64,000 nucleotides of DNA from Candidatus Nomurabacteria bacterium RIFCSPHIGHO2_01_FULL_36_23. Its GTDB lineage: Bacteria > Patescibacteriota > Minisyncoccia > Phycocordibacterales > UBA9973. The position numbers and the translations under genes are program-made. Below are positions 3,725-48,889 of the stretch, piece after piece. The notes beneath the pieces were generated by a model, which had not been told where the DNA came from, searched no databases, and worked only from the letters and a program-made list of their open reading frames with translations. The DNA lies in assembly GCA_001786745.1 (NCBI GenBank), contig MFTF01000018.1, positions 23,577 to 87,576 on the forward strand, given 5' to 3'. The number at the start of each line of letters is the position of its first letter. The first letter of the stretch is position 1.

Positions 3725-5043
3725 TTAGCTATAAAGTTCATAAAGCAGAAAGTTATAAAATAAAAATGAAAGAATTAAAGGAAATTAACCCTCGCCACGA
3801 CGGGGCAAGCAAAAATAAAGGTCAAGCAATGCTGATATCGGTAATATTTTTTCTCTTCATCTCGCTTGCCATAACTTCCGGACTTGTTTCACCTTCGGTG
3901 CGTGAATTCAAAATAGCCAATGATTTAATAAAATCTCGTCAGAGTTTTTTTCTTTCCGAGTCAGCGTTAGAAGATTCATATTTTCGTCTAAAAACTGGAA
4001 AAACCATAGGTTCAACGAACACTATTACCTTGGGGAGCAACTCAGCCACAGCCGTCATAACAGATTCAGGCTATAATGAAAAAACCATTTCTTCTTTGGG
4101 AGATGTCTCTTCCAGGCAAAGAAAAAATGAAATTATATTAACTACTGGCGATGGGGTTTCTTTTAATTACGGTATTCAGTCTGGATTAGGGGGTTTTGTG
4201 ATTGGTAATGCAATAGTCAACGGTAATGTTTATTCAAACGGCACCATTACTGGAAACAATGGCGCTACCGTTACGGGGTCTGCTATTTCTGCTGGTCCCT
4301 CTGGTTTTATTGATAACATAGACATTGGACAGAATGGTATAGGAGACGCAATAGCGCGTGGGGTTACTAATTCTACTATTGCCGGTAATCTTTTCTGTCA
4401 AACCGGAACAAATAATAACAAATCTTGCAATACATCACAAACCGACCCTCCCTCGGTTGGTTTTCCTATTTCACAAGATATGCTTGATCAATGGAAACTT
4501 GACGCTGAAGCAGGAGGTGTTATTGTTGGCAATTTAACCATCTCGGTTCCAACGAGCTTGGGTCCCAAAAAAATTACTGGTGATTTGGCTATCAATAGCG
4601 ACTTAACTATCACTGATACTATTTATGTGGTCGGAAATATTACCACGAACAACAATGCTCATATTTCCTTAAGTAGTTCGTATGGTTCTATGGGCGGTAT
4701 TATCGCGACTGACGGACGAGTAATCTTATCCAACAATGCTCAATTTTTTGGTTCCGGAACGGAGGGCAGTTATATTTTACTTGTAACCACGAGTGTTTGT
4801 CCCACAGGATGTTCTGGTCAAAATGCCATAGAAATTTTAAATAATGTCGGCGCCATACTTGTAAATGCTCAAAATGGGACAGTGCATCTTAATAATAATG
4901 TTGAATTAAATGAGGTAGTAGGATATAAAATTATTATAGATAACGGCGCAGAAATTAATTACACATCAGGGTTAGCAAATAATTATTTCACTTCTGGGCC
5001 CACTGGCGGATGGAGCATTAAAAGTTGGAAAGAGGTAGAATAA
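3721..5043 (+). CDS. Large PilX-like or minor-pilin-associated protein (putative pilus tip or adhesin subunit)
   Basis: PilX_N-like segment KGQAMLISVIFFLFISLAITSGL followed by a Gly/Asn/Thr-rich beta-type region. It is last in the minor-pilin operon. The true start is probably the internal Met near 3766. Confidence 0.4.
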   Translation: MISYKVHKAESYKIKMKELKEINPRHDGASKNKGQAMLISVIFFLFISLAITSGLVSPSVREFKIANDLIKSRQSFFLSESALEDSYFRLKTGKTIGSTNTITLGSNSATAVITDSGYNEKTISSLGDVSSRQRKNEIILTTGDGVSFNYGIQSGLGGFVIGNAIVNGNVYSNGTITGNNGATVTGSAISAGPSGFIDNIDIGQNGIGDAIARGVTNSTIAGNLFCQTGTNNNKSCNTSQTDPPSVGFPISQDMLDQWKLDAEAGGVIVGNLTISVPTSLGPKKITGDLAINSDLTITDTIYVVGNITTNNNAHISLSSSYGSMGGIIATDGRVILSNNAQFFGSGTEGSYILLVTTSVCPTGCSGQNAIEILNNVGAILVNAQNGTVHLNNNVELNEVVGYKIIIDNGAEINYTSGLANNYFTSGPTGGWSIKSWKEVE

Positions 5044-5062
5044 ATAATGATATAATAAAACG

Positions 5063-5833
5063 ATGACTAAAAAAATAATTATCGGCAACTGGAAAATGAA
5101 TCCGCAAACGGAAAAAGAAGCAGAAAAGTGGTTCACCAGTATATCTCAATCAGTTGGGAGAGTTAAGAATACAGAAGTTGTAATTTGCGCGCCATTTATT
5201 TACTTAGATAAATTAACAAAAATTATAACTAGTAAAGTAAAGCTCGGCGCGCAAGATGCTTTTTGGGATGATATCGGGCCTTATACTGGAGAAATTTCTC
5301 CCGAAATGCTTTACAATATCGGCGCAAGATATGTAATCTTAGGACATTCAGAAAGACGAGCAATGGGAGAGACGAATGAACTAGTTAATAAAAAAATAAA
5401 ATCCACGCTGGCTTCCGGTCTTGTGCCCATCGTCTGTATTGGGGAAAAAGAGCGAGACCCAAATCATGAATATTTTAAAAATTTAAAAACACAAGTGAAT
5501 GAATGCTTGAAAGGAGTTGCTAAAACTTCTATCTCAAAAATTATTATTGCTTATGAACCAATTTGGGCAATTTCTTCGACTCTTAATCGGCGCGATGCCA
5601 CTTCCGCCGATTCTCGAGAAATGGCAGTATTTATTCGAAAAATACTTTCTGACATCAGTTCACCTGAAATAGTTTCCAACACCCGTGTTATTTACGGTGG
5701 TTCAGCCAACGAGCGCGATGCCGAAGATTTTCTCCAAAATGGAGGAGTAGATGGTTTGCTTCCCGGTCGAGCAAGTTTAGATCCAAAGAAGTTTTCCGAA
5801 ATTATAAAAATATGCGAGGCATTAAGCAAATAA
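5063..5833 (+). CDS. tpiA: Triosephosphate isomerase
   Basis: Motifs IIGNWKMN, AYEPIWAI and GGS..NE are present. Confidence 0.9.
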   Translation: MTKKIIIGNWKMNPQTEKEAEKWFTSISQSVGRVKNTEVVICAPFIYLDKLTKIITSKVKLGAQDAFWDDIGPYTGEISPEMLYNIGARYVILGHSERRAMGETNELVNKKIKSTLASGLVPIVCIGEKERDPNHEYFKNLKTQVNECLKGVAKTSISKIIIAYEPIWAISSTLNRRDATSADSREMAVFIRKILSDISSPEIVSNTRVIYGGSANERDAEDFLQNGGVDGLLPGRASLDPKKFSEIIKICEALSK

Positions 5834-12688: not shown

Positions 12689-13933
12689 ATGCGAGATAAA
12701 AATGTCGAGAAATTGATAAAAGGTGAAGAGAAAAGACAAGCAGAAGGGTTGGAATTAATCCCATCCGAGAACTATGTGTCGGAAGATGTTTTAAAAGCGA
12801 ATGGCTCTGTTTTTACCAATAAATATTCTGAAGGATATCCAGGACGTAGATATTATGGCGGACAGGAATTTACTGATCAAGTGGAACGTTTGGCCATAGA
12901 ACGTGTGTGTAAACTTTTTAAATGTAAATTTGCCAATGTGCAACCGCACTCTGGCGCTCCAGCCAATTTAGCTGTATATGCCGCGCTTCTTGAACCCGGA
13001 GATACTGTTTTAGGAATGGATCTTTCGCATGGAGGGCATTTGACTCATGGACACCCGATGACTCTTCCGGCCAAAATTTATAACTTTGTCAGATATAAAA
13101 TGAAAAATTCCAAAACTGGGGAAATTGATTATGAAGATTTACGCAAAATAGCGATAGAAAAAAAGCCGAAAATAATTTTGGCTGGATTTTCGGCCTATTC
13201 GCGCACCCTCAATTATAAAAAATTTGTAGAAATTGCTCACGAAGTGGGCGCTGTCACTATGGCGGATATGGCGCACATTGCCGGACTTATAGTCGCTGGC
13301 GTACTGCGCAATCCATTTGACGATGGTTTTGACATTATCACTTCCACTACCCACAAAACGCTTCGCGGTCCGCGCGGAGGAATAATTCTTACTCGCGAGA
13401 ATGAAGAAATTGCCAAGAAAATTGATAAATCAATTTTCCCCGGAATTCAAGGCGGACCGCATATGCACACTATCGCCGCCAAAGCTGTTGCTTTCGGAGA
13501 AGCGATGACGCCCAAATTTAAAAAATACGCCCAACAAATTTTAAAAAATGCCAAAGCAATGGAAGAAGTCTTTCACAAGAACAAAATTCGCATGATAGGT
13601 GGGGGCACGGATAATCATCTTATTTTAGCCGATGTTTTTGGGTCTCTTGGCGTGACAGGTAAAGAAGCGCAGACAGTGCTAGACGAAGTGGGTATAACTC
13701 TTAATATGAATATGATTGCTGACGATACAAGGAAACCTCTAGATCCTTCAGGAATTAGGTTTGGCACTCCGGCCATCACTACGCGCGGTTTCAAAGAAAA
13801 AGAATGCAAACAGGTTGCAGAGCTCATGATTCTAGTCCTAAAAAATAAAGATAATAAAAAAACAAAAGAAGCTGTGCGCAAAGAAATAAAATCTCTGGCA
13901 AAAAAGTTTCCGATACCAAAAAAGTTCGTGTAA
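12689..13933 (+). CDS. glyA: Serine hydroxymethyltransferase
   Basis: Motifs LELIPSENYVS, SHGGHLTHG and the PLP lysine region TTHKTLRGPRGG are present. Confidence 0.9.
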   Translation: MRDKNVEKLIKGEEKRQAEGLELIPSENYVSEDVLKANGSVFTNKYSEGYPGRRYYGGQEFTDQVERLAIERVCKLFKCKFANVQPHSGAPANLAVYAALLEPGDTVLGMDLSHGGHLTHGHPMTLPAKIYNFVRYKMKNSKTGEIDYEDLRKIAIEKKPKIILAGFSAYSRTLNYKKFVEIAHEVGAVTMADMAHIAGLIVAGVLRNPFDDGFDIITSTTHKTLRGPRGGIILTRENEEIAKKIDKSIFPGIQGGPHMHTIAAKAVAFGEAMTPKFKKYAQQILKNAKAMEEVFHKNKIRMIGGGTDNHLILADVFGSLGVTGKEAQTVLDEVGITLNMNMIADDTRKPLDPSGIRFGTPAITTRGFKEKECKQVAELMILVLKNKDNKKTKEAVRKEIKSLAKKFPIPKKFV

Positions 13934-13977
13934 AATCATAATTTTCAATTTCGGATTTTTTCTGCTATATTTTATAA

Positions 13978-14682
13978 ATGGTCAAAGGAAATAAACGAGG
14001 CAAACTCATAGTTATAGACGGCACGGATGGGAGTGGAAAGGCGACCCAGACCGAACTTCTAGTGAAGGCTCTGAAGAATGAAGGGCGGAAAGTTAAAATT
14101 ATTGATTTTCCTGAATATTACGCTAATTTTTTCGGAAAATTCATCGGGCACTGTCTTTCTGAACAGTATTATAACTTTGTAAAAGTACATCCGAAGATTG
14201 CTTCTATACTTTATGCGGCGGACCGCCTTGAGTCAAAAGATAAAATTAAAAAATGGTTAAAAAACGGCTATATCGTTGTTGCCAATAGGTATGCGAGCGC
14301 CAATCAAATTCACCAAGGCGGAAAAATTGTAAATACAAAAAAGAGGGAAGCATTTATCAGATGGCTGGCAGAAATGGAATACAAAGTTTTTAAAATTCCG
14401 AAGCCAGATGTCGTGTTTTACTTAAGTGTGCCTATTCCGATTGTGTTAAAATTAATTACCGAGCGGAATAAAAATAAAAATAGAAATTATTTGGGCAAGA
14501 AAAAAGATGTGCATGAGAAAGATGTAAAATTTCTAGAAAATTCTCGCCAAAGCGCGCTCTGGCTCACCAAGACACAAAAAGGTTGGATTAAAATTGAATG
14601 TGTAAAAAACGGGAAGCTTGATACTCGTGAAAATATTCATAATAAAATTTATGAAAAAATTAAAAAAATCATCAAAAAATAA
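13978..14682 (+). CDS. tmk: Thymidylate (dTMP) kinase-like P-loop kinase
   Basis: P-loop LIVIDGTDGSGKATQ and a DR(Y/L)-type motif YAADRLES are present. Confidence 0.65.
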   Translation: MVKGNKRGKLIVIDGTDGSGKATQTELLVKALKNEGRKVKIIDFPEYYANFFGKFIGHCLSEQYYNFVKVHPKIASILYAADRLESKDKIKKWLKNGYIVVANRYASANQIHQGGKIVNTKKREAFIRWLAEMEYKVFKIPKPDVVFYLSVPIPIVLKLITERNKNKNRNYLGKKKDVHEKDVKFLENSRQSALWLTKTQKGWIKIECVKNGKLDTRENIHNKIYEKIKKIIKK

Positions 14683-15238
14683 AAAACCCGTAGTTATTTT
14701 TATTTATGGACAAATTGCAGTAGGGAAGCTTACTGTAGCAAAAATTTTAAGTAAAAAACTTGGATATAAGTTAACGCACAACCATTCATTAAATGATTTT
14801 GTTGATGAAGTATTTACTCGAGGTATGAATGCTCATAATTCAATAATTGAAAAAATAAGATATGACTTGTTAGAAAATGCAGTTAAAGCAAAAATTAATT
14901 TTGTCACTACTCATTGCTATGCACATAATTTTGTTTCTACCACTGGGCTTTCAGATTCTAAATATGTTGAAACATTAGAGAAAAAACTTACAAAATTGGG
15001 TGCAGGATTTTATCCTATTCAGCTTAAAGCTACTGATGAGGAATTATTGCGTAGAGTAAATGCGGATTCTCGCAAAGCATTTAAAAAATTAAAAGACAAA
15101 AAAATTATGAGAGAGTTAACACTCCAACACGATTGGCAAACTTCTCCCAAATTAAAAAATAATCTTATAATTGACAATACTAATCTTTCTCCCAAAAAAG
15201 TTGCACAAATGATTATTAAACATTTCAAACTGAACTAA
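14618..15238 (+). CDS. P-loop NTPase or kinase-like protein with a deviant Walker A
   Basis: Motif IYGQIAVGKLTVAKIL is GxxxxGK followed by L instead of S/T. The likely start is the internal Met at 14651. It overlaps the tmk 3' end. Confidence 0.4.
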   Translation: MILVKIFIIKFMKKLKKSSKNKKPVVIFIYGQIAVGKLTVAKILSKKLGYKLTHNHSLNDFVDEVFTRGMNAHNSIIEKIRYDLLENAVKAKINFVTTHCYAHNFVSTTGLSDSKYVETLEKKLTKLGAGFYPIQLKATDEELLRRVNADSRKAFKKLKDKKIMRELTLQHDWQTSPKLKNNLIIDNTNLSPKKVAQMIIKHFKLN

Positions 15239-15248
15239 AAAACCTATT

Positions 15249-15282
15249 TAGCATTAATAAGCGGTCGCACACTATTGCTAAA
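15249..15282. repeat. 34-nt palindrome-containing direct repeat, copy A (tagcattaataagcggtcgcacactattgctaaa); abuts the stop codon of the 15283-15846 gene
   Basis: 32/34 identical to 15857-15890. It contains the outer inverted repeat TAGCATTA/TAATGCTA. Confidence 0.85.
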
Positions 15283-15846
15283 CTAGCATAAGTTAAATTT
15301 CTTCATTAAATGCAGTTCATTGTCTATTTTATCAGCAAGAACGAATCGCACATACCTCCTGGCATTATAAAGCTCCAAAATAAATTCAATTTCATTATCG
15401 CAAGGATAAGGGAAAACCAATACAGATTTTTGAAGTTCAATGAGACCTATTTCTCGAAAATGAAAACGCAAAGAGTCACGTAACCTTTTTAATTTCTCAG
15501 GAATATCAAACATCACTATACGCCATTTCTTGTCCCATTTTGTCGGTTTTTTAATCCCCATTTTATCAATGTTAAATTTAAGAGCTTTTTGTTTTCCTTC
15601 TTTGTTTAAAATAAGAATAGTTGTTCCGTCTTTGTGATATTGTTCTTTAACTAAATGAGAAGTATATAAAGAATTGATGGCTCTCTGTAATGCTTGACGA
15701 TTTTCTTTCTCCCATTCTTTTGGTATTTGTTTCAAAATCCACAGCTGTTTCCTGGCTGATTTAGTTAGGCCAAGTGCAAGACCGGCAAGTAAAAGTAAAA
15801 GCACTTTCCTTTTTAGATTTCCTATTCTTGGCATGTTGTGTCCCAT
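15283..15846 (-). CDS. Hypothetical DNA-binding protein, family member 1: N-terminal winged-helix-like region plus C-terminal Cas2/VapD-like motif
   Basis: C-terminal motif WRIVMFDIPEKLKRLRDSLRFHFREIGLIELQKSVLVFPYP...RYVRFVLAD is shared with ORFs at 23442 and 28481. The gene is bracketed by 34-nt repeats. Confidence 0.6.
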   Translation of the reverse strand: MGHNMPRIGNLKRKVLLLLLAGLALGLTKSARKQLWILKQIPKEWEKENRQALQRAINSLYTSHLVKEQYHKDGTTILILNKEGKQKALKFNIDKMGIKKPTKWDKKWRIVMFDIPEKLKRLRDSLRFHFREIGLIELQKSVLVFPYPCDNEIEFILELYNARRYVRFVLADKIDNELHLMKKFNLC

Positions 15847-15856
15847 CTGCTTATTA

Positions 15857-15890
15857 TAGCATTAATAAGCGGTCGCATACTAATGCTAAA
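15857..15890. repeat. 34-nt palindrome-containing direct repeat, copy B (tagcattaataagcggtcgcatactaatgctaaa); 10 nt upstream of the start codon of the 15283-15846 gene
   Basis: Direct repeat of 15249-15282. Perfect 8-bp inverted termini with a 16-nt spacer. Confidence 0.85.
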
Positions 15891-15918
15891 TTGGTTTTTG
15901 CGTGGAAAAGATATATAA

Positions 15919-16434
15919 TTGAATAACAATATGAAAATTCCCATTGTTGATGAACAAGATAATTTTTTATATTATAAAGATCCCAAAGAACGTGATCCGC
16001 GCAAGGAAATTACGCGGGGCTCTGTTCTATGGGTTGTGAATGAAAGAGGAAAAATATTGGTGGCTAAACGTTCAAAAAACAAAGAACACTTCCCGAATAT
16101 TTGGGGACCTTCAGTTGCTGGGTCCCTTGAAGAAAATGAATCTTATAGGGACAATCTCATCAAGGAGGCAAAAGAAGAGATAGGGGTTAATTTAGATACA
16201 ATTATATTAGGCTCTAAAATAAGAGAATCCGATGATCACGAATATTTTAGTCAATACTTTTTTACTAAAATTTCTTCAAATACAAAATTTACTCTTCAAG
16301 AATCAGAAGTTGATGAAGTACACTGGGTTTCCCTAAAACAATTAAAAAATTGGTATCGTAAAAATCCAGAAGAATTTCTGCCCACTTTTAGCGGAAGTTT
16401 AAAAATTATTGAAAATTATGAAAATCAGAGTTAA
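15919..16434 (+). CDS. Nudix hydrolase (IDI/MutT-like)
   Basis: Nudix box GSLEENESYRDNLIKEAKEEIGV. Confidence 0.75.
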   Translation: MNNNMKIPIVDEQDNFLYYKDPKERDPRKEITRGSVLWVVNERGKILVAKRSKNKEHFPNIWGPSVAGSLEENESYRDNLIKEAKEEIGVNLDTIILGSKIRESDDHEYFSQYFFTKISSNTKFTLQESEVDEVHWVSLKQLKNWYRKNPEEFLPTFSGSLKIIENYENQS

Positions 16435-16840
16435 AAAATTAAATAAAAATGCAAAATTGCCGAAATACCATCACCCAGGGGATATAGGGATGGATTTGTA
16501 TGCGATGGAGACAATCACCGTAAAACCTGGTGAGCATCATCGTTTTTGGCATGGGTTTGCTCTTGAGTTTCCAGAGGGCTATGGAGGGATTATAATGGAT
16601 AAGGGGAGCATTTCTAAGGCAGGTCTGCACCATATGGGTGGAGTTTATGATGCGGGCTATAGGGGCGAATACAATACACTTTTAGTAAACTTATCCGATA
16701 AGCCGTATGTTTTTGAAGAAGGGGACAAAGTCTCCCAGCTCATCATAATGCCCGTAGTAATTGGAGAGTTGGAAGAAACTGATACATTAAAAGAATCTGC
16801 CCGAGGAGAAGGAAAATTTGGGAGCACTGGCAAAAAATAA
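16409..16840 (+). CDS. dut: dUTP diphosphatase
   Basis: Motifs KLPKYHHPGDIGMDLYA, GVYDAGYRGE and GKFGSTG are present. Confidence 0.85.
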   Translation: MKIMKIRVKKLNKNAKLPKYHHPGDIGMDLYAMETITVKPGEHHRFWHGFALEFPEGYGGIIMDKGSISKAGLHHMGGVYDAGYRGEYNTLLVNLSDKPYVFEEGDKVSQLIIMPVVIGELEETDTLKESARGEGKFGSTGKK

Positions 16841-18611: not shown

Positions 18612-21600
18612 ATGATTGAAAACGAAAAGAATAAGAAATCTGATATGGCGTTTCGCGAGGAGCGGGTTTTGGAATTCTGGCGGGAAAATAAAATTTTTGA
18701 GAAATCACTAGAAAAAGAATCACCGAAAGGGGAATTTATTTTTTACGATGGCCCAGCCACCGCAAATGCCATTCCGCCCCTTCACTCGCTAGTGCCGCGT
18801 GTTTTCAAAGACGCTATTCCTCGTTATAAAACAATGCGTGGCTATCATGTCCGTCGCAAAGTTGGTTGGGATACTCATGGCTTGCCGGTGGAACTGCAAA
18901 TAGAAAAAAAACTTGGTTTAAAATCCAAAAAAGAAATTGAAGAATATGGAATCGCAGCTTTCAATAAGCTTTGCAAAGACAGCGTATGGGAATTTATTGG
19001 AGCGTGGAATAAGTTTACTGCTCGGAGCGGTTACTGGATAGATTTTAAAAATCCATACATTACTTACGAGAATCCATATATTGAATCCATTTGGAATATT
19101 GTAAAAAAAATAAATGATCAAGGACTTTTATACAAAGACTATAGAGTAGTACCCTGGTGTCCGCGTTGTGGTACGGTTTTGTCCTCGCATGAGCTTGCGC
19201 AAGGATATGAAGACGTGAAAGATTTGTCGGTTTATATAAAATTTAAAGCAAAAGGGCAAGACAATACTTATATCCTCGCATGGACGACGACACCCTGGAC
19301 ATTACCTGGAAATGTTGCACTTGCGATTGGTGAAAAGATTGAATATGTAAAAATAAAAGTTGGAAATGAAATATTAATTTTAGCTAAAGCGCGACTTCCA
19401 ATACTCACTGATCCATATGAAATTATTGATGAAGTTAAGGGCAAAGATTTGGTTGGTTTAGAATACGAACCACTTTTTCCATATTTAAAAGAACAAATTG
19501 AGCAAAAGGGAGAAAAAACAGACAAAGCATTCAAGGTTTATTCAGCGAATTTTGTAAATACGGAAGAAGGAACCGGGATTGTGCATACCGCCGTTATGTA
19601 TGGTCAAGACGATTTTGAACTTGGCGCAAAAATTGGTCTGCCCAAATATCACCTGGTAAATCCTGAAGGAAAATTTATAAAAGGCACAGGGTTTTTAGAA
19701 GATAGATTTGTCAAAGAAAAAGATGAAAATGGCAAACCTACTTTAGATGTGGATATTATTAAATACCTGACAGACAAAAATCTATTTTTAAAAAAAGAAA
19801 ATTACGAGCATCCGTATCCACATTGCTGGCGTTGCTATACAGCGCTCATATATTATGCGCGCGATTCTTGGTATATCAAAATGTCTGATCCGAAAATTAA
19901 GAAACAATTAATCAGCGAAAATAAAAAAATAAATTGGGAACCAGCGCATATTAGAGATGGTCGTTTCGGCGAATGGCTAAGAGAGATTAAAGATTGGGCA
20001 ATATCCCGCGAACGTTATTGGGGCACGCCCCTACCTGTCTGGATAAATCAAAACGATGAAAAATTAATAATCGGCTCAATTGATGAATTAAGAAAATATT
20101 CCCAAAAATCCGGCAATGAATATTTTGTATTGCGTCACGGAGAAGCGGAAAACATTATCCTTAATATCACTACTTCAAATAAATCCGAATATGACAAGTA
20201 TCATTTGACCGAAAAAGGAAAAAAAGAGGTACTAGCTTCAGCTGGGAATTTAAAAAATAAAAAAATTGACCTAATTATTTCATCTCCCCTTATTCGCACG
20301 AAAGAGACGGCGGAGATCATCGCTGAAGCAATAGGATTTTCCAAAAGTGATGTTATTTATGATGAACGACTTCGCGAGGTGGATACGGGGGATTTTCGCG
20401 ATAGAAAAAACACCGAGTATCACTCTTTCTTTTTTTCACTAGAAGAAAAATTCACCAAAAGACCGCCCAATGGGGAAAATTTGACTGAGCTTCGGCGTCG
20501 AATAATGGAATTTCTCTATGAAACTGAAAAAAAATATCAAGAAAAAAAGATTTTAATTGTATCTCACGAATATGCTGTTTGGATGATGTTTACTGGAACC
20601 TTCGGTTGGAGTAATAAGCAAAGCGCAGAAGAAAAAAGCCATAAAGATGATTTTATTAAAACAGGGGAAGTGCTGGGTTTACCTTTTGTGCCATTACCAC
20701 ATGATGATAATTTTGAACTTGATTTACATCGTCCATACATTGACGATATTGTGCTAGAAAAAAACAATAAAGAATTTTATCGCACAAAAGAAGTGATGGA
20801 TGTTTGGTTTGACTCCGGGACAATGCCTTTTGCGCAAGATCACTATCCTTTTTCCGCCAGAAACGAACTCGCCTCTGGCGGAGACAATCAAAAATCACAA
20901 AAACTTCTTTACCCTGCAGATTTTATCTCTGAAGGAATTGATCAAACTCGGGGGTGGTTTTATACTTTGCACGCCGTTGGAGTGCTTATGGGTCGTGGCA
21001 AGGCGTATAAAAACGTCATCTGTCTGGGGCATTTACTGGATGCTATGGGCAAAAAAATGTCTAAATCTCTCGGCAATATCGTTGATCCGTGGGTAATGAT
21101 GGATAAATATGGCGTGGATACGCTTCGTCTCTGGATGTATTCAATCAATCAACCGGGCGAGTCTAAAAATTTTAATGAAAAAACAGTATCTTTACTGCAT
21201 CAACAAGTTTTCACTCTATTGTATAATGTGCTTGCTTTTTATGAATTATACAGAGATAAAGAATTAGAAAATAATGACAGACCTAAATCAAAAAATATTT
21301 TAGACCAATGGATTTTGGCGCGATTAACCGAATTAATTAGTGAATCCACAAAAAAAATGGAAGATTATAAATTACTTGAGCCGACTAGAGCAATTAGAGA
21401 TTTTATCGGAGATCTCTCCACTTGGTATTTGCGCCGTTCTCGCGAGCGAATTAAAGAGGAGGCAACAAATCCCGAACTAGAGCAAGCTCAATACGGGGCA
21501 AGAGCAACTTTATATTTTGTTCTAAAAAATTTAACAAAAGTTATGGCACCACTAGCACCATTTGCAGCCGAAGATATTTGGTTAAAACTCAAGAATGGCA

Positions 21601-22142
21601 ATGATACAGAGAGTGTCCATCTAACAAAATGGCCCCTCGCTTTCGCTCGGGACCTTCGGTCAAAAGTTTTGAGAAATATGTCAGAAGTTAGGAAAATAGT
21701 TTCACTTGGCTTTGAAGCTCGGCAAAAAGCAAAAATTCAAGTTCGTCAGCCACTGGTCAAACTGGAAGTGAAGAATTTTGATTTAAGTCAAGAATATATT
21801 GAGCTCATAAAAGAAGAACTCAATGTGAAAGAGATAAAACAGAATAAAAATCTTAATAACGATGTTATTCTTGATGTAAATATTACTCCAGAATTGAAAC
21901 AAGAAGGGAGCTATCGCGAGCTTTTGCGGGCGATTCAAAATATGCGCAAAAAGATGGAATTAACGCCAAATGATATAATTTTACTTACTTTGGACACAAA
22001 CAATGAGGGCAAAAAATTGGTCCAAAAATTTAAATCTGACATGAAAAAAGTTGTATTAGCTTCTAAAATAGAATTCGGGGAAAATGACGGTGATGAAGTA
22101 AAAATAGATGAACTGGTGTTTAAGGTTAAAATTGATAAATGA
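18612..22142 (+). CDS. ileS: Isoleucyl-tRNA synthetase with an inserted histidine-phosphatase (PGAM-like) domain
   Basis: IleRS motifs are present: FIFYDGPA...RYKTMRGYHV..GWDTHGLPVE, WCPRCGT, GTGIVHTAVMYGQDDF, DVWFDSG, DQTRGWFY and KMSKS. An extra block of about 180 aa carries VLRHGE...SHE. Confidence 0.85.
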   Translation: MIENEKNKKSDMAFREERVLEFWRENKIFEKSLEKESPKGEFIFYDGPATANAIPPLHSLVPRVFKDAIPRYKTMRGYHVRRKVGWDTHGLPVELQIEKKLGLKSKKEIEEYGIAAFNKLCKDSVWEFIGAWNKFTARSGYWIDFKNPYITYENPYIESIWNIVKKINDQGLLYKDYRVVPWCPRCGTVLSSHELAQGYEDVKDLSVYIKFKAKGQDNTYILAWTTTPWTLPGNVALAIGEKIEYVKIKVGNEILILAKARLPILTDPYEIIDEVKGKDLVGLEYEPLFPYLKEQIEQKGEKTDKAFKVYSANFVNTEEGTGIVHTAVMYGQDDFELGAKIGLPKYHLVNPEGKFIKGTGFLEDRFVKEKDENGKPTLDVDIIKYLTDKNLFLKKENYEHPYPHCWRCYTALIYYARDSWYIKMSDPKIKKQLISENKKINWEPAHIRDGRFGEWLREIKDWAISRERYWGTPLPVWINQNDEKLIIGSIDELRKYSQKSGNEYFVLRHGEAENIILNITTSNKSEYDKYHLTEKGKKEVLASAGNLKNKKIDLIISSPLIRTKETAEIIAEAIGFSKSDVIYDERLREVDTGDFRDRKNTEYHSFFFSLEEKFTKRPPNGENLTELRRRIMEFLYETEKKYQEKKILIVSHEYAVWMMFTGTFGWSNKQSAEEKSHKDDFIKTGEVLGLPFVPLPHDDNFELDLHRPYIDDIVLEKNNKEFYRTKEVMDVWFDSGTMPFAQDHYPFSARNELASGGDNQKSQKLLYPADFISEGIDQTRGWFYTLHAVGVLMGRGKAYKNVICLGHLLDAMGKKMSKSLGNIVDPWVMMDKYGVDTLRLWMYSINQPGESKNFNEKTVSLLHQQVFTLLYNVLAFYELYRDKELENNDRPKSKNILDQWILARLTELISESTKKMEDYKLLEPTRAIRDFIGDLSTWYLRRSRERIKEEATNPELEQAQYGARATLYFVLKNLTKVMAPLAPFAAEDIWLKLKNGNDTESVHLTKWPLAFARDLRSKVLRNMSEVRKIVSLGFEARQKAKIQVRQPLVKLEVKNFDLSQEYIELIKEELNVKEIKQNKNLNNDVILDVNITPELKQEGSYRELLRAIQNMRKKMELTPNDIILLTLDTNNEGKKLVQKFKSDMKKVVLASKIEFGENDGDEVKIDELVFKVKIDK

Positions 22143-22757: not shown

Positions 22758-23396
22758 ATGAAAATTAAAAAACTTGGGCATTGTTGCTTGATTATAAAGG
22801 TAAATAGCAAAAGAGTAATGACAGATCCGGGATCTTATACAATTTCTGAACAAGAGATAGAAAAAAATATTGACCTAATTCTTATTACGCATGAACATTC
22901 AGATCATCTCCACGTTGATTCGCTAAAAAATATTTTAGTCAATAATCCTAATGCAATAGTTGTGACAAATAGTGCAGTGGGGAAAATTATAGCCGAAGCC
23001 GGAATTAAATATAAAAAGTTAGAAGATGGTCAATCAGGTGAATTTGCCGGAGTTTTCCTTGAAGCTCACGGAGATAAGCATGCGGAAATTTACGAAGAGT
23101 TTGGACAAGTTCAGAATACAGGATATTTTATAGGTCAAGATTTATTTTATCCCGGTGATGCTTTTACTAATCCAAATAAAAAAGTTGAAGTATTAGCACT
23201 TCCTGTTTTGGCACCGTGGCTTAAAATTAAAGAATCAATAAATTATGCTATTTTATTAAAACCTCACATATGTTTTCCTGTTCATGATTGGAATATTAAA
23301 ATACCCGGCATTGTGCACAAAACTCCAAGTATTGTCTTAGCAGAGCACAACATCAGTTTTAAAGTTTTAGAAATCGGCAAAGAGGAAGAAATTTAA
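22758..23396 (+). CDS. Metallo-beta-lactamase-fold hydrolase
   Basis: Motif LITHEHSDHLH (HxHxDH). Confidence 0.65.
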   Translation: MKIKKLGHCCLIIKVNSKRVMTDPGSYTISEQEIEKNIDLILITHEHSDHLHVDSLKNILVNNPNAIVVTNSAVGKIIAEAGIKYKKLEDGQSGEFAGVFLEAHGDKHAEIYEEFGQVQNTGYFIGQDLFYPGDAFTNPNKKVEVLALPVLAPWLKIKESINYAILLKPHICFPVHDWNIKIPGIVHKTPSIVLAEHNISFKVLEIGKEEEI

Positions 23397-23398
23397 GT

Positions 23399-23432
23399 AT
23401 AACAAACTATCGCGGCCGCGAAAATATGTTAT
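23399..23432. repeat. 34-nt palindrome-containing direct repeat (ataacaaactatcgcggccgcgaaaatatgttat); 9 nt upstream of the 23442 gene
   Basis: 28/34 identical to 23912-23945. It has inverted termini ATAACA/TGTTAT and a central perfect palindrome CGCGGCCGCG. Confidence 0.85.
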
Positions 23433-23441
23433 GATAAATCT

Positions 23442-23915
23442 ATGGAACTGACAACACTAGATCACTTAATAGCGTTTTTGCTTTCTGCTCGTTCAACGAG
23501 GATATATAGAAAAATATTATGGTCAAGAGTGTATATGAGACAAAAAAACTTAAGCACCGAAGCTTTTCGCCAGCATATTTACCGTTTACATAAAAAGGGA
23601 ATTATTGAAGCAAAAGGTAATAAAGTTTATATTTATCGAGAAAATCTTTTAAAGTTTTCAGTCAAAAGGAATTCAATAATGAAAAACATTTTTCCAGACA
23701 AAACAGAAAAAGTTCTCATATCTTTTGATATACCCGAGAAAAAGAAAAAAATGAGAGATTGGTTACGGAATCAAATAAAGTATTGGGATTTTGAAATGAT
23801 TCACGAAAGTTTATGGCTTGGGTATGGGCCACTACCCAAAGCGTTTAATGATAGATTAAAACATCTTGGTATTTATAAAAATGTTCGGGTATTTAGAGTT
23901 AGAAAAATAGCATAA
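23442..23915 (+). CDS. Hypothetical DNA-binding protein, family member 2 (winged-helix plus C-terminal Cas2/VapD-like motif)
   Basis: N-terminus FRQHIYRLHKKGIIEAKGNKVYIY is wHTH-like. The C-terminus VLISFDIPEKKKKMRDWLRNQIKYWDFEMIHESLWLGYGP...VRVFRV is paralogous to 15283 and 28481. Confidence 0.6.
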   Translation: MELTTLDHLIAFLLSARSTRIYRKILWSRVYMRQKNLSTEAFRQHIYRLHKKGIIEAKGNKVYIYRENLLKFSVKRNSIMKNIFPDKTEKVLISFDIPEKKKKMRDWLRNQIKYWDFEMIHESLWLGYGPLPKAFNDRLKHLGIYKNVRVFRVRKIA

Positions 23916-23945
23916 CAATATATCGCGGTTACGAAAAAATGTTAT
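23912..23945. repeat. 34-nt palindrome-containing direct repeat (ataacaatatatcgcggttacgaaaaaatgttat); overlaps the stop codon of the 23442 gene
   Basis: Direct repeat of 23399-23432. Confidence 0.85.
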
Positions 23946-23984
23946 ATATGGATTTATGAAGGAAAAGTGTAGTAAAATAAATAA

Positions 23985-24566
23985 ATGCACCACATTTATC
24001 ACACGGAAGGAATAATATTGGGGAGCAAGAACTTCGGAGAAACGGAAAGATATTATTCCATATTTACCAAAAATCTGGGAATGATTTATGCTTCGGCGCA
24101 AGGGGTGCGTAAAATGTCTTCAAAATTGCGTTTCATGTTGCAGGATTTTGCCTACCTTAAAATTGATCTGGTGCAGGGCAAAGATTTCTGGCGCGTGACA
24201 AATGTGTCAAAGACAAATAAATTAGAACAGATTGCTAAACAGTCAGAACATTTTGTAGTTTTTTTTAATATTGCGCGGTTATTGAAACGTTTGCTGGCTG
24301 GCGTTGAACCTAATCCAGCTTTATTTCTTGATCTTTTAAACGGTTTATTTATTTTAGAAAAATCAGAAACGAAGGAAGAGTTGCATAACATTGAAGTAAT
24401 TATTGTTTTGCGCATACTTAATAATTTGGGATATATTGGTGAAAATGAGACGTTGCAAAATATAATTAAATCGCCCTTTGAAAAAGATTTAATCTTTGAA
24501 GTTTCAAGAAGTAGAACTAAAATACTCTCGGCAATTAATAAGGCGCTAAAAGAGACACATCTGTAA
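23985..24566 (+). CDS. recO: DNA repair protein RecO
   Basis: RecO N-terminal OB pattern IILGSKNFGETERYYSIFTKNLGMIYASAQGVRK. Confidence 0.75.
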   Translation: MHHIYHTEGIILGSKNFGETERYYSIFTKNLGMIYASAQGVRKMSSKLRFMLQDFAYLKIDLVQGKDFWRVTNVSKTNKLEQIAKQSEHFVVFFNIARLLKRLLAGVEPNPALFLDLLNGLFILEKSETKEELHNIEVIIVLRILNNLGYIGENETLQNIIKSPFEKDLIFEVSRSRTKILSAINKALKETHL

Positions 24567-24586: not shown

Positions 24587-26530
24587 ATGTCGTTGAATGA
24601 TGGAGATAAATTAAACAGAATAGAGGAACTTAAAAGCAAGCTCTTCAGTAAAAACTATCAGACAAAAATAGAACATCAAGATAATTTTACTCATTTAAGT
24701 AATAAGAATGATGTACCAGATTTTTGGCAAGATAATACCAGAAAGAGATTTAACTCTGGAGAAAAATTTTTTATGAAAACCCCCATATTTAAGAATTTTT
24801 TTATCTTTTCAGTAGTTTTTTTTATTTTAACTCTAGGATATGCTTCTTATGTGTTTTTTGTTGGAAGCAACACTATCTCTAAAGATAATATTGATATCTC
24901 TATACTGGGAAATACTTTTACTGCTGGGGGAGAAGAGCTTTCGCTTGTTGTTGGAGTTACAAATAGAAATAGTTCTTCCTTAGATTTAGTTGATCTTGTT
25001 ATAGAATATCCTAAAAGTTCTTTGAATTCCCAAATTGATTCGTCTAATCAAACTGAGAGACTTCGCATGTCATTGGGAATGATTCCCACTGGAGCAATAC
25101 GAAATGAGAATGTGAAAATAGTGCTTTTCGGTGAACAAGGAAGTATTCTTCCCATAAAAATTTTTATTGAGTATCGGGTGGAAGGGTCAAATGCTATTTT
25201 TGTGAAAGAAAAGCTCTACGAAGTCACTATAAACTCTACACCCATAAATCTTTCTGTTGATGCTCCTATGTCAACAAGCCCCAACCAAGATATCGTTCTT
25301 AATATAAAATCAACATTAAATGCCACTAAACCAATCTCCAAAATACTTCTGAAACTTGATTATCCAGCCGGATTCCAATTTATGTCATCCAAGCCAGCGC
25401 CTTCCCTCGGTAATAATATTTGGAATTTAGGAGATCTTGCTCCCGGCGCAGAGCGTAATATTTCTATAACAGGTAAAATGCTTGATGTTTTTGAGGGAGA
25501 AGAAAAAACATTCCAAATATGGAGCGGATCGCAATCCAAGTCAGATAAGTCCATGATTGATGTTATTTTTAATTCTTTGGCGCATACTATTATGATAAAA
25601 AAACCCTTTATTGAAGCAAAACTTTTTGTAAATGGTGAATATCAGAAAGAATATGCGATAGATTCAAGAACTATGGTTAATGGAGAAATTCGTTGGATAA
25701 ATAATTTAGATACAAATATAAATGACCTGGAAATTCGGGCAAAAATTCTCGGAAATGCGGTTAATCGCAAAACCATAAACGCGATGCAAGGTTTTTATAA
25801 CTCATCCGATGATATAATAATTTGGGACAAAAATTCTTATAGCCAATTTAAAGAAGTAAATCCTGGTGATTCTGGGTCTGTTGATTTTTCTTTCTCCCCG
25901 CTGTCATTATTCTCGGTCTCGGGCGGAGTGCTTTCTAACCCTTCCATTGATATAGAAATAAATATTGCCGGGAAACAAGCGCTTGAAGGTTATGATCTCA
26001 AAGATTTGAATAATTCAGGATCCTCAATAATTCGTATTATTTCTGATGTTGGGTTTGGGACCAAAGCCTTGTATTACTCCGGACCTTTTAAAAATGCTGG
26101 TCCTACATCCCCAACAGTTGAAAAAGAAACAACCTATACTGTTATTTGGACTCTTTCCAATAGCGCAAACAATATTTCAAAAGCGCAAATACGTTCTACT
26201 CTTCCATCGTGGATGCGTTTTGTGGGACCTTTTTCTCCCGCAGTAGAAGATTTGACTTACAATTCTTCTACCAAAGAAATAACTTGGAATGTGGGGAATA
26301 TTCCCAAGGGCACCGGTATTACCGGGGCAGAGAAAGAAATTGCCTTTCAAATAGCGTTTATTCCTTCGCTCTCTCAAATCGGTTCTCTTCCTGTTATTAT
26401 CAACGATAGCATTTTGACTGGACACGATGATTTTGCTAATGTGGATGTGAGAGTAAGTAAAACATCATTAAATACCAGACTTGATAATGACCCGTTATTT
26501 CCTTCTTCTGAGGGAGTAGTCACAGAATAA
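24587..26530 (+). CDS. Hypothetical membrane-anchored protein with a large extracytoplasmic beta-rich domain
   Basis: Single N-terminal TM (IFKNFFIFSVVFFILTLGYASYVFFVG) followed by about 560 aa of Ser/Thr/Asn-rich sequence. No recognisable catalytic motif. Confidence 0.5.
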   Translation: MSLNDGDKLNRIEELKSKLFSKNYQTKIEHQDNFTHLSNKNDVPDFWQDNTRKRFNSGEKFFMKTPIFKNFFIFSVVFFILTLGYASYVFFVGSNTISKDNIDISILGNTFTAGGEELSLVVGVTNRNSSSLDLVDLVIEYPKSSLNSQIDSSNQTERLRMSLGMIPTGAIRNENVKIVLFGEQGSILPIKIFIEYRVEGSNAIFVKEKLYEVTINSTPINLSVDAPMSTSPNQDIVLNIKSTLNATKPISKILLKLDYPAGFQFMSSKPAPSLGNNIWNLGDLAPGAERNISITGKMLDVFEGEEKTFQIWSGSQSKSDKSMIDVIFNSLAHTIMIKKPFIEAKLFVNGEYQKEYAIDSRTMVNGEIRWINNLDTNINDLEIRAKILGNAVNRKTINAMQGFYNSSDDIIIWDKNSYSQFKEVNPGDSGSVDFSFSPLSLFSVSGGVLSNPSIDIEINIAGKQALEGYDLKDLNNSGSSIIRIISDVGFGTKALYYSGPFKNAGPTSPTVEKETTYTVIWTLSNSANNISKAQIRSTLPSWMRFVGPFSPAVEDLTYNSSTKEITWNVGNIPKGTGITGAEKEIAFQIAFIPSLSQIGSLPVIINDSILTGHDDFANVDVRVSKTSLNTRLDNDPLFPSSEGVVTE

Positions 26531-26567
26531 GTTATAAAATTTCTAAAGTAAAAAGTTATAAAGTAAA

Positions 26568-27959
26568 ATGAAAGAAGAAAAATTAGATAAAAATAATTTA
26601 ATGGAAAAAATAGTTTCACTTTGCAAAAGGCGAGGCTTTGTTTTTCAAGGTTCGGAGATTTACGGAGGATTTGCCGGAACCTATGATTGGGGTTCGCTTG
26701 GTGTTGCCCTTAAAAGAAATATTACTGATACTTGGAATAAGGCGATGCAAGATCATCCAAATATGACTTTCCTTGACTCAAGTATTTTTACTTCTGGAAA
26801 AGTTTGGGAAGCGAGTGGGCATGTCTCAGGATTTTCAGATCCTCTCATTGTTTGTAATAAATGCAAAGAAAAATCTCGCGCTGATCATTTACTGGAAAAT
26901 ATTGGAATAAAAGCTGATGAAAAATTGAGCGAATTAGAAATCAACAAGATTTTTAACGAGAGTAGAAATAAAATAAAATGTCCAGGATGTGGTGCTAAAG
27001 ATTTTGGAAAAGTTCATGCTTCAAATTTACTTGCTACCTCTAATCTCGGAATGCTCGATGAAAATGAACAGCAAGTATATCTTCGTGGAGAAACTGCGCA
27101 AGGTATTTATATAAATTATAAAAATGTTTTAGATACTGGTTTTGTGTCTATTCCTTTTGGTATTGCTCAAATAGGGAAGGCTTTTCGTAATGAAATTAGT
27201 CCACGTCAGTTTTTATTTCGTAAGCGTGAATTTGAGCAGATGGAAATGCAGTATTTTTGTAATCCAAATGAAGCAATGGATAATTATGAAATTTGGAAAA
27301 AAGAAAGAATGGAATATTATCAAATGTTGGGAATAAATCCTAAAAAGCTTAGATTTAAACCACACGAAAACCTTGTTTTTTATGCGAAAGCCGCCTGTGA
27401 CATAGAATATGAATTTCCTTTCGGTTGGAATGAGCTTGAAGGAATACATTATCGTGGAGATTATGATCTAACTCAGCATCAAAAATTCTCTGGTGTAGAT
27501 ATGAAATTTTGTGACGAAGAAACAAAAGAAAAATATATTCCACATATAGTTGAAACATCAGTTGGGGTGGACCGAACAGTACTTATGGTTTTATGTGATG
27601 CTTATTGTGAGGACAAAATAGGAGAAAGTGAAAGAGTTGTTTTAAAATTTCCTCCCAAACTTGCTCCGATAGTATGCGCCGTATCTCCATTACTTAAAAA
27701 CAAGCCAGAACTTATTAGTAAAGCCAAAGATGTTTTTGATGTTCTCAAAGCCGAGTTCGGTCGTGTGGCGTGGGACGACAATGGCAATATCGGCAAACGT
27801 TATCGCCGTCAAGATGAAATCGGCACGCCATATTGCATTGTGGTTGATTTTGATACTCTTGCTGACAATACTGTGACCGTGCGAGATCGTGATACTGGAG
27901 AACAAGAGAGAATAAAAGTAGAAAATTTGAAAAGTTATATAAAAGAGAAAATACAATGA
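26568..27959 (+). CDS. glyQS: Glycyl-tRNA synthetase (alpha2 homodimeric type)
   Basis: Motifs RRGFVFQGSEIYGGFAGTYDWGSLG and class II motifs 2 and 3 are present, with a C-terminal anticodon-binding domain. Confidence 0.85.
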   Translation: MKEEKLDKNNLMEKIVSLCKRRGFVFQGSEIYGGFAGTYDWGSLGVALKRNITDTWNKAMQDHPNMTFLDSSIFTSGKVWEASGHVSGFSDPLIVCNKCKEKSRADHLLENIGIKADEKLSELEINKIFNESRNKIKCPGCGAKDFGKVHASNLLATSNLGMLDENEQQVYLRGETAQGIYINYKNVLDTGFVSIPFGIAQIGKAFRNEISPRQFLFRKREFEQMEMQYFCNPNEAMDNYEIWKKERMEYYQMLGINPKKLRFKPHENLVFYAKAACDIEYEFPFGWNELEGIHYRGDYDLTQHQKFSGVDMKFCDEETKEKYIPHIVETSVGVDRTVLMVLCDAYCEDKIGESERVVLKFPPKLAPIVCAVSPLLKNKPELISKAKDVFDVLKAEFGRVAWDDNGNIGKRYRRQDEIGTPYCIVVDFDTLADNTVTVRDRDTGEQERIKVENLKSYIKEKIQ

Positions 27960-28422: not shown

Positions 28423-28457
28423 ATTTACTTAACATACGCTATAGCGTGAGTCTAGTA
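28423..28457. repeat. 35-nt palindrome-containing direct repeat (atttacttaacatacgctatagcgtgagtctagta); 23 nt upstream of the 28481 gene
   Basis: 29/35 identical to 29104-29138. Core ATACGCTATAGCGT (13/14 palindrome). Confidence 0.8.
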
Positions 28458-28480
28458 AATTATGATAAGATAATTAAATT

Positions 28481-29070
28481 ATGGGGAATATAGAAAAAGA
28501 AGTAAAAAAAAGAGACAAAAGAGCAAGGTTGCAAAAGATTATTTTATCCACTATTTTTGCTCTTGGTGGCTTAAGTGTCGCTTTAATAGCTCCGAAAATG
28601 ACAAAAGTATTGGTAAAGTTTGAACCGGAATTTATGAAAGATAAGTATAGAAAATACTCTTTTAATAGATCACTGGTTAGACTCAAAGATGCTGGTTTTA
28701 TTGTTTTTGAAAAAACAGAAAGAGGGAATTTTGCCTGTCTGACCCCAAAAGGAAAAGAAAAGTTGCGCCAGCTAACAATTCATAATTTTAAAATAAAAAA
28801 ACCTAAAAATGGGATGGAAAATGGAGATTACTCATGTTTGATATTAAAGAAAAAAGAAAAAGCACTAGAGATAAAATTCGGCATAATTTATTTAAAATTG
28901 GATTTATAAGATTGCAAGATAGCGTCTGGGTATATCCTTATGATTGTGAAGATTTTATTAACTTAATGAAAGCTGATTTTAAAATAGGGAAAGACTTGTT
29001 GTATGTAGTAGCGGATAAAATTGAAAATGATAAATTCCTCGCCCAACATTTTAAATTATTTAATAGTTAA
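28481..29070 (+). pseudogene. Family member 3 of the wHTH plus Cas2/VapD-like family, disrupted by a -1 frameshift in an A5 run near 28805-28809 (track ORFs 28481..28909 and 28834..29070)
   Basis: Frame 1 upstream of 28834 reads KWDGKWRLLMFDIKEK, matching KWDKKWRIVMFDIPEK of member 1. The upstream frame carries the wHTH part. It could be a sequencing error in a homopolymer. Confidence 0.5.
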
Positions 29071-29103
29071 TTTTTTTATATTTTTCTTATTTACATATTT
29101 CAG

Positions 29104-29138
29104 ATTTACATAAGATACGCTATAGCGTAGTTATAGTA
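29104..29138. repeat. 35-nt palindrome-containing direct repeat (atttacataagatacgctatagcgtagttatagta); 33 nt downstream of the 28481-29070 gene
   Basis: Perfect 14-bp palindrome TACGCTATAGCGTA. Direct repeat of 28423-28457. Confidence 0.8.
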
Positions 29139-29180
29139 GATTTGAGTTCAATAAAAAACTTTAGTATAATACTTATTATG

Positions 29181-34359: not shown

Positions 34360-34409
34360 AATAGTAATAAAGTCGAAAGTTTATAAAGTTATAAAGTAAA
34401 ATCAAAGAT

Positions 34410-48205: not shown

Positions 48206-48338
48206 TAACTATTAACATATTTAATTGTTGCAATAAAAAACAAAAACTACCCTTTTGATTTATCCACAGGGTGTTTTTTGTTTTTATGAATGTGCTATAA
48301 TATAAAAGTTCATTATAAATTTTAACTTTTTTATAAAT

Positions 48339-48851: not shown

Positions 48852-48889
48852 TAAAAATTAATTTTTATTAATTTTAATATTGTAAAAAA

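Follow-up and report, generated by a model that had tools for sequence, protein, structure and literature searches.

Background

PaaX (Escherichia coli W, structure 8A39; Jannaschia, 3L09), the phenylacetyl-CoA-responsive repressor of the paa operon, is built of a winged helix-turn-helix (wHTH) at its N-terminus, followed by a Cas2-fold domain. Its E. coli operator consists of the inverted hexamers TGATTC-N27-GAATCA, it acts on its own promoter as a repressor that sterically hinders RNA polymerase, and effector binding has been placed at its C-terminus (PMC9493321). Here we analyse c2, a gene for a 157-aa protein with the same two domains in the same order, together with the two 34-bp palindromic direct repeats that bracket it, in a stretch of 64,000 nt (the window) of contig MFTF01000018.1 from Candidatus Nomurabacteria bacterium RIFCSPHIGHO2_01_FULL_36_23, a member of the Patescibacteria. 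PaaX is the best structural match to the c2 protein over both domains, and the likeness extends to the DNA, with widely spaced inverted hexamers more than 20 bp apart at a promoter in PaaX and in the putative c2 site (ATAACA-N22-TGTTAT). The c2 protein differs from PaaX in its length (157 aa vs ~305) and in lacking the PaaX_C domain, the c2 sites add a conserved GC-rich centre and a second site at the 3' end of the gene, and several c2-type paralogues occur per genome, each with a private site.

Other described systems resemble parts of this arrangement. Cas2 and VapD share the fold of the C-terminal domain of c2, and ~34 nt is a typical length for the repeats in CRISPR arrays, to which the partly palindromic c2 flanking repeats are alike in length; in c2, however, a wHTH precedes the domain in the same protein, the repeats number only two, and the "spacer" between them is a 474-nt gene. 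We found no regularly spaced repeats of a CRISPR array in the 64-kb window, and no cas1 was evident from the list of window open reading frames (ORFs) and their translations, which were not Pfam-scanned. Looping repressors with an auxiliary operator, namely LacI (O1/O2), GalR (OE/OI) and DeoR, have a pair of cognate operators separated by hundreds of bp, of which one overlaps the promoter and the other stands where there is no promoter, an arrangement that the putative c2 operators would share, whereas in c2 the second site lies at the regulator's own stop codon, the pair brackets the regulator and no helical phasing is seen.

Transposases of the RAYT group, the tyrosine transposases associated with repetitive extragenic palindromes (REP), are flanked by their cognate REP palindromes and have in common with c2 a single gene between palindromes whose sequence is particular to the protein clade and whose two copies vary in orientation. 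In contrast, the c2 protein is not of the HUH/Y1 type and its palindromes are not dispersed; with no HUH domain match in the cassette ORFs and only two copies in the window, a REP/RAYT-like or IS200/IS605-like element was rejected. Integron attC cassettes and Xer pdif modules are genes delimited by imperfect palindromic sites, and the order of neighbouring genes also varies around the c2 unit; unlike them, c2 has the same site on both sides, a promoter of its own by prediction, co-variation of site and protein, no array and no empty-site footprint. No integrase was evident among the window ORFs, which were not systematically scanned.

A pair of palindromes confined to c2

The features of the c2 locus are as follows (positions are those of the window).

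23399-23432, no strand: upstream 34-bp palindromic site, putative operator, ATAACAAACTATCGCGGCCGCGAAAATATGTTAT; ATAACA-N6-CGCGGCCGCG-N6-TGTTAT
23427-23435, forward strand: extended -10 element of c2, TGTTATGAT, predicted from the sequence; TG at 23427-8 and hexamer TATGAT at 23430-5, overlapping the right arm of the upstream site
23442-23915, forward strand: c2 gene, 157-aa truncated PaaX-like protein; wHTH at about residues 1-75 (23442-23666), Cas2-fold PaaX_M at about residues 89-152 (23706-23897)
23912-23945, no strand: downstream 34-bp palindromic site, ATAACAATATATCGCGGTTACGAAAAAATGTTAT; centre CGCGGTTACG, degenerate against the clade consensus CGCGGTCGCG

The two site copies are identical at 28/34 positions, and a repeat search lengthens the pair to 37 nt at 81%. 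Both carry the inverted termini ATAACA/TGTTAT, around a centre that reads CGCGGCCGCG upstream and CGCGGTTACG downstream. A gap of 9 nt separates the upstream site from the ATG at 23442, and the stop codon TAA (23913-23915) lies inside the downstream site, within A-TAA-CA. A first-pass annotation had described this layout, and its coordinates, repeat identity, 9-nt gap, stop overlap and inverted termini were all reproduced in the sequence.

Upon searching the window with a degenerate c2 motif (ATAACA-N6-CGCGG-N3-CG-N6-TGTTAT, with at most 2 mismatches), we obtained two matches in 64 kb, both of them the c2 sites, against 0 expected (100 shuffles). There are no further copies of either full 34-mer in the window, where the next-best matches (21-22/34) are AT-rich background, and across 180 loci the c2-type motif is present solely at the flanks of c2. 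A shared terminator or REP-like dispersed element was rejected, given the lack of extra window copies and the confinement of the motif to c2 flanks.

We then consider a set of 12 close orthologues, whose proteins are 68-80% identical to the c2 protein of the window. Both repeats are present in 12/12; in 12/12 a gap of 9 nt separates the upstream site from the ATG, and in 11/12 the downstream site begins at an offset of -4 to the end of the stop codon, so that the repeat-to-gene distances, which the annotation had singled out for comparison among orthologues, are conserved. The upstream site carries a mean of 1.55 bits per position across the 12 orthologues, vs 0.58 in the adjoining 5' non-coding flank, and the downstream site a mean of 1.69 vs 0.62 in the adjoining 3' non-coding flank. 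The centre of the c2-clade sites is CGCGGYCGCG.

The bracket is a trait of the family

All homologues of c2 that we found belong to Patescibacteria (Paceibacterota, Nomurabacteria, Zambryskibacteria), and the family comprises 1049 clusters at 50% identity with E<=1e-10. No relatives were found in viral contigs, on which ground a phage origin was rejected. For a survey of the bracket, 160 loci with relatives were fetched (loci encoding c2 relatives are labelled L002, L163 and so on) and the upstream and downstream DNA of 139 non-redundant genes was compared. The best ungapped upstream-versus-downstream match scored 19 in the median, whereas the cross-locus null had a mean of 9.6 and a 99th percentile of 18.8, and 71 of the 139 genes exceeded that percentile with direct-repeat scoring alone. 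When searching jointly for two mutually similar palindromes in either orientation, 88 genes qualified. By either the direct-repeat or the paired-palindrome criterion, at least 97 of the 133 genes above 60 bits are bracketed, and among the remaining wHTH-containing genes most have visible site pairs that score slightly under the thresholds. No flanking palindrome pair was found at about 14 shorter relatives (120-136 aa) that match the Cas2-fold domain only, which indicates that the pairs accompany the full wHTH architecture. The loci of these short relatives include L035, L037, L048, L053, L066, L074, L078, L146, L150 and L155. The bracket is thus a trait of the family, with all three paralogues of the window included. 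The two other paralogues, c1 and c3, lie on either side of c2.

15249-15890, reverse strand: paralogous unit 1 (c1); downstream site 15249-15282, gene 15283-15846 (187 aa), upstream site 15857-15890
28423-29142, forward strand: paralogous unit 3 (c3); upstream site 28423-28461, gene 28481-29070 (frameshift-split), downstream site 29104-29142

The two sites of a pair agree at 32/34 positions in c1 and at 32/39 in c3, and all three pairs are palindromic, with no sequence relation between one pair and another. The comparison of the c1, c2 and c3 repeats therefore bears out the earlier description of three paralogous units that share one bracket layout and differ in their repeats. The protein likeness that had been drawn between c2 and c1 holds in part: both pass the PaaX_M cut-off, but the sequence similarity between them is weak (tblastn E=1e-3, 41% over 44 aa).

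Sites co-vary with the proteins that they flank

Next, we examined the anatomy of the site in 169 distinct sites aligned on their dyad. The outer arms (..AACA / TGTT..) are conserved and are followed inwards by T-rich and A-rich spacers and a centre of the form RC-N4-GY, in which C15 and G20 show 95-96% invariance throughout the family, paralogues whose sites are otherwise unrelated included. When the two copies at one gene are compared, positions 1-6 (outer arm) and 13-17 (centre) hardly ever differ, and it is the spacer that varies. The upstream and downstream sites of one gene are 85% identical on average, vs 37-40% between distant paralogues, and across 86 family members the identity of the proteins correlates with that of the sites (Mantel Spearman rho 0.59), with 0/999 permutations giving a correlation as high. 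Exclusivity, conservation at fixed offsets and co-variation support the proposal of the first-pass annotation that the repeats are protein-specific recognition sites and not common transposon ends; judged from these comparisons, it is well supported that the c2 palindromes behave as candidate recognition sites of this kind.

The palindromes also evolve in a manner that preserves their symmetry. We counted 60 compensated changes between copies of one gene; the expectation was 20.7+-3.7, and none of 500 shuffles gave more than 33. These double changes keep each copy perfectly palindromic and are concentrated in the spacer; in L117 and L140, for instance, both copies are paired at 34-38/38 positions although the copies differ at 8 positions. 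It is possible that a hairpin or cruciform matters, that template switching homogenises the arms, or that the protein reads the shape of the spacer symmetrically.

The upstream site overlaps a predicted leaderless promoter

The start region of c2 reads TGTTATGAT-AAATCT-ATG, with a 6-nt spacer, and TGTTAT in it is the right arm of the upstream site, an arm that appears to belong to the extended -10 box of c2, which would be a leaderless gene. The arrangement TGTTAT[A/G]AT-N6-ATG is found in 11/12 orthologues, L090 reading TGTTATTAT, and c1 reads TGCTATAAT-AAGCAG-ATG, where the arm of the upstream site again falls within the box. A -10-like hexamer stands at the right edge of 54/88 upstream sites vs 34/88 downstream sites. 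In the window as a whole, at least 21 of 62 genes have TGnTAnAAT 6 nt ahead of their ATG, whereas 5 of 62 have a Shine-Dalgarno-like motif; since the extended -10 grammar is common and Shine-Dalgarno-like motifs are rare, most window mRNAs are probably leaderless, with extended -10 promoters. Examples of this promoter grammar are seen upstream of 2738, 5063, 7340, 12689, 22758, 23985, 24587, 49520 and 55040.

The c2 protein is a truncated PaaX-like regulator

The Pfam scan in the window covered four cassette ORF segments, and the labels of their neighbours are precomputed Pfam hits. The central Cas2-like domain of PaaX (PF20803, PaaX_M; gathering cut-off 24) matches c2 with 40.7 bits, c1 with 68.1 bits (E=7e-19) and c3b with 48 bits. 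The AlphaFold2 model of c2, built with 27 homologues, has a predicted local distance difference test score of 87.6 and consists of a winged helix (residues 1-75) and then a beta-alpha-beta-beta-alpha-beta domain. Upon comparing this model with known structures by Foldseek, the sole match below E=1e-3 was E. coli W PaaX (8A39), with both domains aligned over 168 columns of the 305-residue chain, and the C-terminal domain alone resembled Cas2 (5ZYF, 8IA4, 3EXC) and VapD (3UI3). The C-terminal domain of the c2 family contains the Cas2-like beta1 motif FDIP, with an invariant Asp, and a beta-strand motif S[LV]W. The wHTH plus Cas2-like gene that had been proposed from the letters is accordingly what the profile and the fold both indicate. 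The link to PaaX required fold comparison, because a PDB sequence search with the family profile gave no significant match.

In the Pfam comparison c2 has no match to PaaX_C, the protein ending at residue 157, directly past the Cas2-fold domain, and to the NCBIfam PaaX equivalog (TIGR02277) c1 scores 21 bits vs a cut-off of 264.55 and c2 has no match. With the C-terminal PaaX domain absent and the equivalog far under its cut-off, the c2 product is a truncated PaaX-like regulator and not PaaX proper. The Cas2 profiles stay below their cut-offs as well (PF09827, 18.1 vs 23.8; TIGR01573, 13.7 vs 24.5), and naming by defence-system and NCBIfam profiles gave nothing above cut-off, but only a weak AbiEi-like wHTH match (5e-5). 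The neighbourhood of c2 consists of housekeeping genes, namely those for isoleucyl-tRNA synthetase (IleRS), a haloacid dehalogenase (HAD), a metallo-beta-lactamase (MBL) hydrolase, RecO and glycyl-tRNA synthetase (GlyRS), as given by the precomputed labels, and no paa genes are apparent from the ORF translations and few Pfam labels, only the cassette ORFs having been scanned.

A proposed mode of action

Since the right arm of the upstream site lies in the predicted -10 box, autorepression by promoter occlusion is the best reading, and we consider it probable that c2 encodes a minimal PaaX-type regulator, which would act on its own leaderless promoter as a repressor via the upstream palindrome, with the stop-codon palindrome as an auxiliary or boundary site. 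The winged helix would read the DNA, and the Cas2-fold domain, by analogy with PaaX and Cas2, would serve as a dimerisation and possibly a sensing module for some signal. The two 34-bp palindromes would be the protein's own binding sites; protein bound to the upstream site would cover the -10 region, exclude RNA polymerase and so repress c2, as is reported for PaaX at the promoter of its own gene, and the downstream site would most likely join the upstream site in a protein-bridged loop of ~510 bp or act as a roadblock or boundary against neighbouring transcription. In the c2 clade the downstream site may also affect the following promoter, about 22 nt away.

Several observations weigh against this proposal. 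A factor with detectable sites only at its own gene has no obvious target, the four conserved blocks of each site exceed what one wHTH dimer obviously explains, and a simple dimer-operator model does not predict the compensated, palindrome-keeping changes. Upstream and downstream sites lie 510-713 bp apart, and these distances gave no signal of helical phasing at 10-11 bp (n*R^2 < 1.3), a result that lends looping no positive support and, over such a distance, does not speak against it either. Finally, the neighbours downstream of the unit are convergent in 42/82 cases (42 vs 38), and the downstream site as a general operator of the following gene was rejected.

The downstream site

The core palindrome had been annotated as degraded in the downstream copy. 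In the orthologue group this copy is more conserved than the upstream one, and the downstream site is in general not a decaying remnant. Over the 610 bp compared in 12 near-identical contigs a single point substitution occurs, T/C at 23932, in the centre of the downstream site (CGCGGTTACG or CGCGGTCACG; L161, L177), where C is closer to the clade consensus. Apart from it, near-identical strains differ only in L163/L168, in which the left half of the upstream site is replaced. One further feature of the window lies beyond the downstream site.

23968-23978, forward strand: recO promoter-like element TGTAGTAAAAT, followed by 6 nt and the ATG at 23985; 22 nt past the downstream c2 site

In the c2 clade an element of the TGTGaTAAAAT type stands ~20-31 nt past the downstream site, whichever gene follows (recO, MBL or other), and a local effect of the site on the following promoter is possible in this clade. 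Third copies of a site were seen at 3/88 loci (~10 kb each), all of them at convergent gene ends and not at promoters, and those of L067 have A5/T5 flanks, like bidirectional terminators. With the third copies at convergent ends and these flanks, a boundary or roadblock role stays in play.

Alternative explanations

An alternative to which we give a minor but real chance is that the palindromes are RNA or single-stranded DNA hairpins, acting as terminators, 3'-end stabilisers or processing sites and perhaps recognised by the Cas2-fold domain as a VapD/Cas2-like RNase, which would trim the c2 message from read-through transcripts or control its translation. The compensated arm changes, which keep perfect palindromes in many paralogues, and the extensive pairing of both copies in L117 and L140 speak for hairpins, but the mismatches within the palindromes are near balance between G.T (127) and A.C (95) and are dominated by transversions, which argues against a selected RNA stem, and the spacers of the c2 clade are conserved in sequence but not complementary. 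Folding energies of -13 to -15 kcal/mol (z -3.2 to -6.4) make the hairpins of c1 and c3 stable, whereas those of the weak sense-strand hairpins of c2 are -9.1 and -4.5 kcal/mol (z -1.8 and -0.8), no better than shuffles. A T6 run directly follows the downstream copy of c1, and the third copies all lie at convergent ends, with the A5/T5 flanks of L067 among them; yet a T-run follows only 9/88 downstream copies, and 25/79 upstream copies lie between divergent genes, where there is no 3' end at all. The resemblance of the C-terminal domain to VapD and Cas2 nucleases and the invariant FDIP aspartate would suit an RNase, but the upstream copy overlaps the -10 box, 6 nt before the leaderless ATG, and would be outside the c2 mRNA if the promoter reading is right. 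We found no terminator-like sites and no Rfam match in 23300-24100. An intrinsic terminator for c2 was rejected on the lack of a terminator-like site, the weak hairpins and the scarcity of T-runs, and an RNA hairpin or terminator is unlikely for c2.

We hold it to be quite unlikely that a Cas2-fold dimer reads the ~34-bp repeat pair as boundaries, such as roadblocks or insulators in a terminator-poor leaderless genome, or as recombination-prone borders through which the unit and the genes beside it could be shuffled. If true, this reading would make c2 a free-living counterpart, and possibly an evolutionary relative, of repeat recognition in CRISPR adaptation.

A further explanation takes the palindromes as recombination sites or as the ends of a mobile or shufflable cassette, whether att-, dif- or attC-like or a target duplication, with the protein as an accessory or directionality factor. 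The 34-bp layout of arm, spacer and arm recalls the sites of tyrosine recombinases, and the site-gene-site unit retains both sites while its neighbours change: the MBL gene precedes c2 in the window, L003, L004 and L092 and comes after it in L002, L007, L089, L093 and L108, and a 168-aa gene (geneX) follows c2 in L091 (5552-6058) and precedes it in the strain variant L163/L168. Against a moving cassette, the orthologues keep their place beside recO, a 647-aa gene and glyRS until identity falls to ~39%, nothing in the 64 kb is dispersed or in multiple copies, and viral contigs yielded no relatives. The asymmetric core is flipped between copies in 22/88 pairs, which would suit recombination, but the distinct site of each paralogue tracks its own protein, which fits the encoded wHTH and not a shared recombinase.

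In L163/L168, homology to the window stops at the centre of the upstream site and the other ~570 nt compared, from c2 to the start of recO, are 100% identical. This single breakpoint is explicable by homologous recombination via the conserved site as an island of identity, and a recombination role is for this reason rated as distinctly unlikely. The variant regions are 2293-2460 of L163 and 1-135 of L168 vs 23380-23432 of the window, and a scaffold gap in L163 starts 5 nt into the site. The first-pass annotation had looked to strains lacking the unit for a lone 34-mer, as an inserted cassette might leave behind; MBL-recO junctions without c2 have a gap of 0-3 nt and carry no 34-mer, and all contigs with an identical RecO or MBL carry c2 (23/23), so that presence/absence polymorphism is not seen. 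Decay would also be expected of neutral duplications, whereas here the sites are conserved and it is their flanks that are not. With no empty-site 34-mer, no polymorphism and no decay of the sites, an insertion footprint or target-site duplication was rejected.

The chance that the pair is a coincidental likeness in AT-rich intergenic DNA or a generic terminator of unrelated genes is negligible, for although short AT-rich matches of 21-25/34-39 are frequent in a genome of 35.5% GC, the degenerate motif is expected 0 times in the window, the pair is kept at fixed offsets in 12/12 close orthologues, it recurs in other sequence around ~100 relatives, and it never stands beside unrelated genes in the window.

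Other observations in the window and in related loci

The c3 gene is broken into ORFs of 142 aa and 78 aa by a -1 frameshift in an A-run (CCTAAAAATGGG, ~28795-28806). One added A would restore ...KKPKKWDGKW..., and the flanking c3 palindromes are intact; the split may mark a pseudogene or come from slippage or from an error of assembly. The c1 gene lies in a thymidylate-related cluster (glyA, tmk, NUDIX, dut; window 12689-16840), and the cluster around its positional counterpart in L067 (3077-10257) also contains thyA and folA, with a third, near-identical copy of the palindrome of the c1 counterpart at the convergent junction past folA. The relative in L110 is flanked by a 50-nt direct repeat of another kind, which is identical at 48/50 positions (~4840-4890 and ~5510-5560; TTTACTAGTCCGGCCTTAAGGAGGGTGGCGTAAATGCCGTTTTTTTTCAT), is terminator-like and is not palindromic in the style of the family.

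Elsewhere in the window, a 42-nt segment of tandem AAAGTTATAAAGTAAAA units occurs in three copies (3724-3765, 26527-26568 and 34360-34401), of which at least two immediately precede a start codon, and these segments look like duplicated promoter elements. The IleRS gene (1176 aa, 18612-22142) carries an inserted histidine-phosphatase domain (PF00300, His_Phos_1; precomputed Pfam label of an identical protein), and at 47720-49438 there are three tandem paralogous small genes (161, 170 and 182 aa) that share a 221-nt repeat at 67-71% identity.

Implications

We found no paper that joins PaaX with Cas2, PaaX with the candidate phyla radiation (CPR) or Cas2-like proteins with wHTH regulators, and nothing on the c2 family in the literature on Patescibacteria transcription factors or leaderless mRNAs; no description of the family was found in the searchable literature. 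For the PaaX operator, the review PMC9493321 was the one source of data. As a system of repressor and operator, c2 is of a known kind, and what is unusual about it is the bracket, the private sites of several paralogues per genome and the palindrome-preserving evolution. The bracket and the compensated evolution are unexplained by textbook operator models and may indicate a boundary or hairpin-based mechanism.

To our knowledge, Patescibacteria (CPR) have tiny genomes with few recognisable regulators and no cultured models, and the control of their transcription is almost uncharted. The c2 family offers an entry to CPR regulation, as it is large, present in multiple copies per genome and accompanied by a probable DNA site that can be read from the flanks of the gene. 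The ~100 pairs of protein and putative site are usable for a wHTH recognition code, for validation by DNA affinity purification sequencing (DAP-seq) or electrophoretic mobility shift assay (EMSA), and for orthogonal repressors. Finally, the presence of a Cas2-fold domain outside CRISPR, beside repeats of CRISPR length, bears on the recruitment of Cas2.

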